This document shows, in pieces, positions 63,175 through 64,000 of a stretch of 64,000 bases of DNA. The DNA is from Candidatus Latescibacterota bacterium (GTDB taxonomy: Bacteria; Krumholzibacteriota; Krumholzibacteriia; WVZY01): assembly GCA_020352495.1 (NCBI GenBank), contig CP070677.1, positions 1,975,418 to 2,039,417 on the forward strand. Reading direction: 5' to 3'. A program made the translations under genes and the position numbers. Each line of letters opens with the position of its first letter. Position 1 is the stretch's first letter. The notes under the pieces were generated by a model. It searched no databases and had not been told where the DNA came from. It saw only the letters and a program-made list of their open reading frames with translations.

Positions 63175-63492
63175 ATGCCTGCTCGAGAAGTCGTTTCCGG
63201 CGATTGTCTCGCCGCATTCCTTCCCGCCGAGGGCGCTCGCCGGATGTCCGAGCTCCTCGTCCGCTATCCCGTAACAAAGGTCGGCGGATTCCACGGACGG
63301 CAAAAAAAGCAAGTCATCATGCGTATCACGACCGCCGAAGACGTCCTCGACCTCTTCGGGGCGCTTTGGCAAATAATCCTCCCCATGAGGGAGAAAATCG
63401 AAGAACATCTCGAAAAGAAGAATGAAGAAAATCAAAAGTCGGATCAGGGAGCTCCGATACGTCGAAGGACGAGATCTCGTTCCGGCGGCTAA
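63175..63492 (+). CDS. Hypothetical protein
   Basis: The ORF is 105 aa. Confidence 0.35.
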   Translation: MPAREVVSGDCLAAFLPAEGARRMSELLVRYPVTKVGGFHGRQKKQVIMRITTAEDVLDLFGALWQIILPMREKIEEHLEKKNEENQKSDQGAPIRRRTRSRSGG

Positions 63493-64000
63493 TAATTGGC
63501 GCAAGCATCCTCCCCACCAAAAACAAGCCATCAAGGCGGCGCTCAACGAACTCGGATTCGTCGACGCCGTTCTCGCGCGGGAAGAAGACGGTAAACTCGT
63601 CTTGATCGACGGACATCTCCGGCAAGATGTCGCCAAGAAGCAACAGGTTCCCGTTCTCGTCCTCGACGTTACCGAGGAAGAAGCCAACAAGATTATGGCG
63701 ACCCTCGATCCCCTCGCCGGGATGGCCGAAGGCGACGCCGATGCGCTTACCGCCGTCCTCGAGGGGATGCAAACCGAAAACGAAGATTTCGCCGCTCTCC
63801 TCGCCGAGATCGCCGGAGATTACGGAGCCCTCGAGGCCGATCTCGGAGGCGAAGAAGAAGAGGAGGAGGACGAAGAGACCGCAATTCCGCCGGAACCGCC
63901 GACAATCGTCGTCTCCGCCGGCGAGACTTGGCTCTGCGGCAAACACCGGCTCTTGATCGGCGATGTCCTCGAGGGACTCGCCGGCCTCCCCAACGAATGC
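63422..64000 (+). CDS. ParB-domain DNA methyltransferase (3'-partial)
   Basis: By manual translation the ORF is open to the window edge. 'WRKHPPHQKQAIKAALNELGFVDAVLAREEDGKLVLIDGHLR' is a ParB-like nuclease domain. 'TWLCGKHRLLIGDVL' is the start of the methyltransferase domain. Confidence 0.6.
   Translation, partial: MKKIKSRIRELRYVEGRDLVPAANNWRKHPPHQKQAIKAALNELGFVDAVLAREEDGKLVLIDGHLRQDVAKKQQVPVLVLDVTEEEANKIMATLDPLAGMAEGDADALTAVLEGMQTENEDFAALLAEIAGDYGALEADLGGEEEEEEDEETAIPPEPPTIVVSAGETWLCGKHRLLIGDVLEGLAGLPNEC

Follow-up and report, generated by a model that had tools for sequence, protein, structure and literature searches.

The question raised by the end of this locus is what is encoded by a reading frame which opens at position 63422 and runs off the edge of the analysed stretch, a 64,000-nt window of contig CP070677.1 from a Candidatus Latescibacterota bacterium. 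An earlier note, made from the letters alone, had seen here a ParB-nuclease-domain protein joined through an acidic linker to the beginning of an N6/N4-methyltransferase, and had named it, together with a first ParB-like gene (ParB no. 1), as a possible binder of a 36-bp repeat array lying upstream. In this work the full-length gene was recovered, and the annotation of the window is thereby settled: the truncated open reading frame (ORF) is part of a complete and apparently active fusion of a ParB-fold domain and a DNA methyltransferase.

The frame starts, on the + strand, with the ATG at 63422-63424, no other start codon lying between it and the upstream in-frame TGA at 63386-63388, and its translation stays open for 193 codons, up to base 64000. 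It is absent from the mechanical ORF list because it runs past the window end. The encoded peptide contains NWRKHPP...LIDGHLR at residues 25-67 and TWLCGKHRLLIGD at residues 169-181. A search of a 5.8-billion-protein database returned 1,770 homologues (E<=1e-3; best 1.5e-42), and an exhaustive search of a library of 1.84 billion representatives returned 7,650: these figures are far beyond chance and indicate a real gene. An N-terminus common to the homologues (MKIRDRIKELRRV... compared with MKKIKSRIRELRYV...) supports the start at 63422.

Recovery of the remaining part depended on the search used. A 50-nt exact string from the window end had no match in viral, genome or metagenome contig collections, megablast of 60000-64000 against a phage collection found nothing, and a word-indexed search of the 5.8-billion-protein database missed an identical full-length protein, which was recovered by the exhaustive search of the representative library. 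This protein, P0121, is 598 aa long and 100% identical to all 193 window codons, so that the window holds 193 of 598 codons, and the truncation supposed by the earlier note is real. P0121 is encoded on a 2,089-bp Logan assembly contig (L004) of run SRR14739669, bases 1-712 of which equal window 63289-64000 (712 bases, 0 mismatches); the contig continues for 1,377 bp past the window, and codons 194-598 are found at its positions 713-1930. Another contig of the same run (L001) is identical to the region of ParB no. 1. P0121 also corresponds to NCBI UCG53621.1, 'MAG: DNA modification methylase [Candidatus Latescibacterota bacterium]' (MAG, metagenome-assembled genome), on a contig of 4,308,810 bp.

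The C-terminal half is a methyltransferase by several lines of evidence. Full-length P0121 matches Pfam PF01555 N6_N4_Mtase with 138.9 bits, against a cut-off of 26.7 (E 3.1e-40). With the 193-aa fragment, Pfam and NCBIfam gave no ParB or methyltransferase match above noise, PF01555 being missed because its profile starts at residue 195, and phmmer against the PDB returned noise only. The methyltransferase motifs, which the earlier note expected beyond the window edge, are both present: motif IV reads TSPPYW, with SPPY at residues 200-203, 7 codons past base 64000, while the S-adenosylmethionine (SAM)-binding motif I, DPFGGSGTT, lies at 533-541 and is aligned to that of Thermus thermophilus TTHA0409 at E 1e-6. 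The order motif IV, target-recognition region, motif I identifies the beta-class permutation. HMMER aligns residues 164-252 of P0121 to residues 11-100 of TTHA0409 (2ZIE; E 6e-23), and, since this alignment begins at residue 164, the hairpin ETWLCGKHRLLIGD, predicted by AlphaFold 2 (AF2) as strands 169-172 and 175-179, belongs to the methyltransferase fold; the entry into this fold had thus been correctly recognized within the window.

By sequence, the closest solved relatives are TTHA0409 (6e-23), a rotifer N4-cytosine methyltransferase and M.PvuII, also an N4-cytosine enzyme, with CcrM and RsrI behind. When the full-length AlphaFold model (pLDDT 81.6, pTM 0.71) was searched with Foldseek, 2ZIG (8.8e-13) and CcrM 6PBD (1.9e-12) came first, followed by N4CMT, M.BceJIV, PvuII, RsrI and MboIIA; the structural matches to beta-class methyltransferases span E 1e-12 to 1e-10. 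The target-recognition region contains low-confidence inserts at 376-406 and 482-495. A cysteine cluster, CCxxC...CxC (C450, C451, C454, C520, C522), is conserved in the relatives, and the four-cysteine insert is zinc-ribbon-like.

The same data bear on the target base. SPPY is the motif found in the N4-cytosine enzyme N4CMT, whereas CcrM has DPPY (PMC10406627); because of this motif, and because N4-cytosine enzymes outrank N6-adenine enzymes in the sequence search, the evidence suggests, weakly, N4-cytosine rather than N6-adenine. P0121 was also considered as a CcrM-like GANTC methylase, and rejected, its NCBIfam score being 57 bits against a cut-off of 830. GANTC is the site methylated by CcrM (PMC6787082); the core GAGTC of the 36-bp array, which is such a site, was considered as a methylation target and dropped because P0121 is not CcrM-like.

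For the N-terminal half, the evidence comes from profiles and from structure prediction, and both bear out the ParB-like domain proposed from position 63422. In the PHROG collection the fragment matches phrog_498, 'DNA methyltransferase' (5.1e-26; residues 10-183 aligned to positions 34-209 of a 633-position profile), and several 'ParB-like' families, such as phrog_620 at 4e-16. When a profile was built from 32 family members, its best PDB match, a weak one (E 0.015), was Spo0J 1VZ0, with liDGHLR aligned to lvaGERR, the Box II GERR of Spo0J; D63, G64, H65 and R67 are invariant across the 32-sequence alignment. A gapless hand extension of the same alignment places an invariant D96-P97 at the position of the Box III E-N. 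The Pfam ParB_N family weakly matches 10 of these 32 members, at best with 7.6e-5. The AlphaFold model of the N-domain has a pLDDT of 90.2, and the 50 PDB structures most similar to it are without exception ParB, Noc, KorB, PadC, Srx (sulfiredoxin), SbnI or SerK, the best being 6SDK_A (E 1.2e-6, TMq 0.63); ParB structures are also matched when the full-length model is used.

In the AF2 models the N-domain is followed by two helices only (106-114 and 121-133), then by the disordered linker and the methyltransferase; between or after these elements the P0121 model contains no helix-turn-helix (HTH) domain and no ParB-type C-terminal dimerisation domain. The linker, residues 136-168, is acidic as previously described, with 13 D/E and 0 K/R, and its residues 139-154 have a pLDDT of about 40 in the full-length model. 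The word 'nuclease' in ParB-nuclease-domain is a family label only.

It is nearly certain that P0121 is made of a ParB/Srx-fold N-domain (1-135), an acidic linker (136-168) and a complete beta-class SAM-dependent DNA amino-methyltransferase (169-598). The parts which fall within the window are listed in Table 1.

Table 1. Position in the window of the gene encoding P0121 and of its recognizable parts
Feature	Position	Strand	Basis
ParB-fold / beta-class amino-methyltransferase fusion, 5' 579 nt (codons 1-193) of a 1,797-nt, 598-codon gene	63422..64000	+	translation; P0121; L004 overlap
ParB/Srx-fold (ParB-CTPase fold) N-terminal domain, residues 1-135	63422..63826	+	PHROG profiles and AF2 model
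DGHLR motif, residues 63-67; counterpart of ParB Box II / P-motif GxxR	63608..63622	+	family profile compared with Spo0J 1VZ0
Acidic linker, predicted disordered, residues 136-168	63827..63925	+	composition; AF2 pLDDT
Methyltransferase domain start, residues 169-193: beta-hairpin (ETWLCGKHRLLIGD) and first helix	63926..64000	+	HMMER to 2ZIE; AF2 strands

What a ParB fold may do on a methyltransferase was approached through the relatives of the N-domain. The survey of IMG/VR comprised the 80 best loci of the family (L027-L106), with 79 whole ORFs and one running off its contig. A fusion to a [DS]PPY methyltransferase (352-596 aa) is found in 33 of the 79 whole ORFs, while 46 are stand-alone proteins. 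The gene following the fused forms, as assigned by PHROG, is a large terminase subunit in at least 10 cases and a small terminase subunit in at least 6. The stand-alone forms are followed by glucosyltransferase-like genes (9), DpdA/TGT-like genes (9), DNA methyltransferases (at least 6), Mom-like genes (6) and some acetyltransferases, with no terminase family among the 25 next-gene families listed. Similarly, about half of the best 144 representative-library matches run from HRxxCGD into (D/S)PPY some 21 residues later, the remainder being stand-alone proteins of about 170-270 aa. Members of the family, which is missed by Pfam ParB_N, in almost all cases either are part of a DNA base-modifying enzyme or precede the gene for one, and for this reason the N-domain is to be seen as a companion of such enzymes, not as a partition protein. 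In the IMG/VR loci the stand-alone proteins often end in a CPxCG zinc-ribbon.

The closest annotated phage match is a 249-aa protein, labelled 'DNA methyl transferase', of Stenotrophomonas phage StM171 (MZ611865.1, L002:2965-3714); equivalent matches are given by the related phages Suso and HXX_Dennis. The StM171 protein has retained the ParB-like domain and HRLLCGD, and its C-terminal end resembles that of the fusion methyltransferases, but it contains neither (D/S)PPY nor FxGxG; from this it looks like a derivative with an internal deletion, and is probably inactive. This case indicates that annotation alone would have been insufficient to prove a fusion for this window.

The reading which we favour, and hold to be somewhat better than an even bet as a whole, is that P0121 is an orphan phage beta-class amino-methyltransferase, possibly an N4-cytosine enzyme, protective in function and equipped with a ParB-fold helper domain. 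The enzyme would methylate the phage genome after replication and before packaging, and the methylation would shield progeny DNA from host restriction; such an anti-restriction role is plausible. The gene would lie at the end of the early/middle region and would probably be followed at once by the terminase genes, an order seen for most of the fused relatives. The ParB-fold domain would not bind a centromere; its most likely task would be to activate the attached enzyme, or to help it engage double-stranded DNA, in a nucleotide-dependent manner. This accessory role is proposed on the precedents of DpdB with DpdA and of the ParBs of phage thymine dioxygenases (5mYOX), to which we return below.

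The only sequence available past the gene is the end of L004, where a new ORF (MGKKKRKKGRPAKGTK...) opens at 2042-2089, 112 nt after the methyltransferase stop, and is visible for 48 nt before the contig ends. Its N-terminus is rich in lysine and arginine; by analogy with the genes that follow the fused relatives, it is possibly a small terminase subunit.

Several points weigh against the helper-equipped protective methylase. Pfam PF02195 ParB_N has no match in the fragment at E<=1 or in full-length P0121 at E<=0.01. SPPY as opposed to DPPY is only a statistical indicator of N4-cytosine as opposed to N6-adenine specificity. Target base, target sequence and protective role are all inferred, and unproven. 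With so short a part of the next gene in view, the terminase neighbour is here a prediction drawn from relatives. Hydrolysis of a nucleotide (CTP) of the ParB type may be absent, given D96-P97 at Box III, and mutation of the nucleotide-binding and hydrolysis residues in a thymine-dioxygenase ParB had no effect (PMC13229309). Finally, Bce_0392 of a Bacillus cereus prophage, the single ParB-methyltransferase with published in vitro work, nicks DNA non-specifically in vitro (PMC5512222, PMC3592412).

This last activity is the basis of a different explanation, in which the protein is bifunctional and its ParB-fold domain has a non-specific nickase or DNase activity, possibly under the control of a nucleotide: the N-domain would damage unmethylated host or competitor DNA, or introduce nicks for recombination or packaging, and the methyltransferase would mark self DNA. 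Osa and other ParB/Srx proteins are DNases or NTPases (PMC5512222, PMC3592412), and the conserved D63, H65, R67, E87 and D96 could in principle bind metal. However, the in vitro nicking by ParB-like proteins is weak and non-specific, and the stand-alone family members adjoin base-modifying enzymes, not nucleases or toxins, which fits a helper role better. The sequence itself does not discriminate between the two roles, and we consider a nickase unlikely.

Methylation might also be regulatory. Dam methylation controls pac cleavage in phage P1, and P0121 could methylate sites near pac or cos, or in promoters, in order to time packaging or late transcription. In most viral loci terS or terL comes right after the gene of a fused member, and in 23 of the 80 IMG/VR loci the gene starts less than 150 bp from a contig end, which suggests a first gene beside the genome terminus. 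In B. cereus the order is terS, then the ParB-methyltransferase (PMC3592412, PMC5512222). A terminase-adjacent position is, nevertheless, equally expected of a late-expressed protective methylase, and we give the regulatory role little credit.

A bolder idea, which we regard as improbable, is that the fusion forms a sliding methyltransferase clamp gated by a nucleotide. Enzymes of the beta class are obligate homodimers (PMC7544214), and the methyltransferase dimer could replace the ParB C-terminal dimerisation domain, two ParB-N domains forming a nucleotide-closed gate and the 35-residue acidic linkers enclosing the DNA. The clamp would be loaded onto the phage genome, for which the 36-bp array is a conceivable site and ParB no. 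1 a conceivable helper, and would then slide along it and methylate all of it processively. If this were true, phage methyltransferases and DpdA-like, Mom-like and glycosyltransferase-like enzymes would all have in the N-domain family a universal 'loader'.

The array itself is degenerate, about 2 kb long (57647-59550), with a period of 36 bp and 34 CGAGTC cores, mostly 36 bp or multiples apart. Its units contain two conserved boxes, GARCGAGTCG and GGAGAAANCC, with variable spacers between them; 28 of the 32 occurrences of GARCGAGT in the window are inside the array, the top strand of which is 63% purine. A perfect 13-bp tandem repeat, CGAAGTCGATGAA, is also found within it, in 3.7 copies, at 58697-58744. 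P0121 might be a centromere- or array-binding ParB, acting on these repeats (57.6-59.6 kb) in partition or silencing; binding to the array is what the earlier note allowed, and the ParB fold and the many cores present upstream are in keeping with it. Yet the gene is 3.8 kb downstream of the array, the modelled protein has no HTH and no ParB-type C-terminal dimerisation domain, its N-domain relatives are coupled to DNA-modifying enzymes and not to par loci, and the deviant Walker A motif of ParA proteins, KGGxGK[ST], was not found in the six frames of the 64-kb window. The distance, the missing HTH and the modification-coupled family make such a role very improbable, and one of the two candidate binders is removed.

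The better candidate is ParB no. 1 (56952-57617), whose stop lies 30 bp before the array start and which has a weak Cro-like HTH match in Pfam: it looks like the cognate binder. The former statement that the element has two ParB-fold proteins and no ParA is valid for the window, and is to be restricted to it. The two ParB-fold genes were also considered as duplicates or paralogues, and this was rejected: compared by hhalign, ParB no. 1 and the N-domain family are related with a probability of 0.2%, the DGxxR motif being all they have in common. Just upstream of the array, a 311-aa ORF (56020-56955) matches phrog_4285, 'transposase' (8e-36), and, weakly, Pfam Inj_translocase; its last 4 nt are shared with the start of ParB no. 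1, an overlap that points to translational coupling of the two.

That P0121 is the modification half of a restriction-modification or other prophage defence system, with a nuclease partner encoded further downstream, is hardly to be expected: defence systems such as Dnd, Ssp, Dpd and those related to BREX do contain ParB-like domains, and only 48 nt of the next gene are visible, but these encode the lysine/arginine-rich start of MGKKKRKKGRPAKGTK, the next gene in relatives is a terminase, and the upstream neighbours are small proteins with no family match in the PHROG profile search.

As to the setting, the window is DNA of a tailed phage: it encodes a tape measure protein together with two helicases and a primase-polymerase, and all these genes are on the + strand. 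The presence of UCG53621.1 on a 4.31-Mb MAG contig indicates that this DNA either is integrated as a prophage or was joined to the chromosome during assembly. The replication module stands after the tail genes and before the probable packaging genes, which is unusual for an integrated prophage. In the tail region, a 2,940-codon ORF (23787-32609) has no PHROG match at E<=1e-3, and the same is true for the ORFs of 539 and 556 codons beside it. Closer to the fusion gene, a 105-codon ORF (63175-63492) overlaps its start by 71 nt, with no family match and no called gene on record in the public collection. At 62021-62049 the + strand has a strong intrinsic-terminator-like hairpin, with 12 pairs (10 G-C) and a T-run behind it. 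A single transcription unit may comprise the methyltransferase gene and the small genes that begin at 62115, and lead on into the next module.

The architecture of P0121 is not new. A ParB-CTPase fold joined to an N6_N4 methyltransferase has been catalogued in a 2025 survey as frequent in phages and prophages, and prophage-enriched (PMC12704722), in agreement with the remark that such fusions are common in phages, and the protein is already in GenBank as 'DNA modification methylase'. The known ParB-CTPase/PF01555 fusions (PHROG 498; B. cereus ATCC 10987 Bce_0392; Terrisporobacter phage TPDSL_ph1 CDS0063) have the same arrangement of a ParB-fold N-domain, a linker, an HRLLxGD hairpin, (D/S)PPY and FxGxG. 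They also share with P0121 the setting in a mobile element and the position near terminase genes, which for P0121 is predicted. P0121 differs in having SPPY and not DPPY and in carrying the CCxxC...CxC insert, and its methyltransferase half is of about 430 aa, as compared to about 250 aa in most fusions.

The nearest relatives of this half (48-50% identity) are stand-alone methyltransferases of about 400 aa. The relatives of P0121 in IMG/VR (22 out of 22) and in GTDB genomes match the methyltransferase half only, and no syntenic relative of this phage was found among them. The one other long fusion in this subfamily, P0372 (613 aa), joins the same type of methyltransferase to a different ParB-like domain, in an uninformative genomic context. 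These two observations point to a local pairing of domains, and P0121 looks, from such comparisons, like an independent shuffle within a known theme.

Among solved methyltransferases, TTHA0409 (2ZIE/2ZIF/2ZIG), M.PvuII, rotifer N4CMT, CcrM and M.RsrI have the fold and the motif order of P0121, and TTHA0409 has an identical TSPPYW motif IV. Unlike P0121, all five are devoid of a ParB-fold domain, and their target-recognition region is much smaller. TTHA0409 is itself a 'putative' methylase, and leaves the specificity of P0121 unfixed. With the canonical partition protein (Spo0J/ParB-parS-ParA) P0121 shares the N-terminal fold and the arginine position of GxxR. It differs in having no HTH, C-terminal dimerisation domain or ParB_N match, no ParA gene in the window, and D-P in place of the Box III E-N.

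The closest functional parallels are with ParB proteins which assist DNA-modifying enzymes. DpdB is described as a ParB-fold ATPase with a DGQQR motif, working with DpdA of the Dpd 7-deazaguanine system (PMC10164549), and some 5mYOX thymine dioxygenases require a ParB on double-stranded DNA (PMC13229309). Both kinds of protein have a ParB fold without the canonical HTH and serve a post-replicative DNA base-modifying enzyme. DpdA reportedly requires ATP hydrolysis by DpdB for the insertion of preQ0 into DNA. A DGxxR-type motif is common to DpdB (DGQQR) and P0121 (DGHLR), and stand-alone relatives of the P0121 N-domain lie directly upstream of DpdA/TGT-like genes in 9 of the 46 loci. DpdB and the 5mYOX ParBs are separate polypeptides with C-terminal domains of their own, whereas the module of P0121 is fused to its enzyme, and the likeness is one of fold and motif. 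The neighbourhoods of the N-domain family may thus be useful for understanding why ParB-fold modules accompany DNA-modifying enzymes, a theme already emerging from the work on DpdB and on the 5mYOX ParBs.

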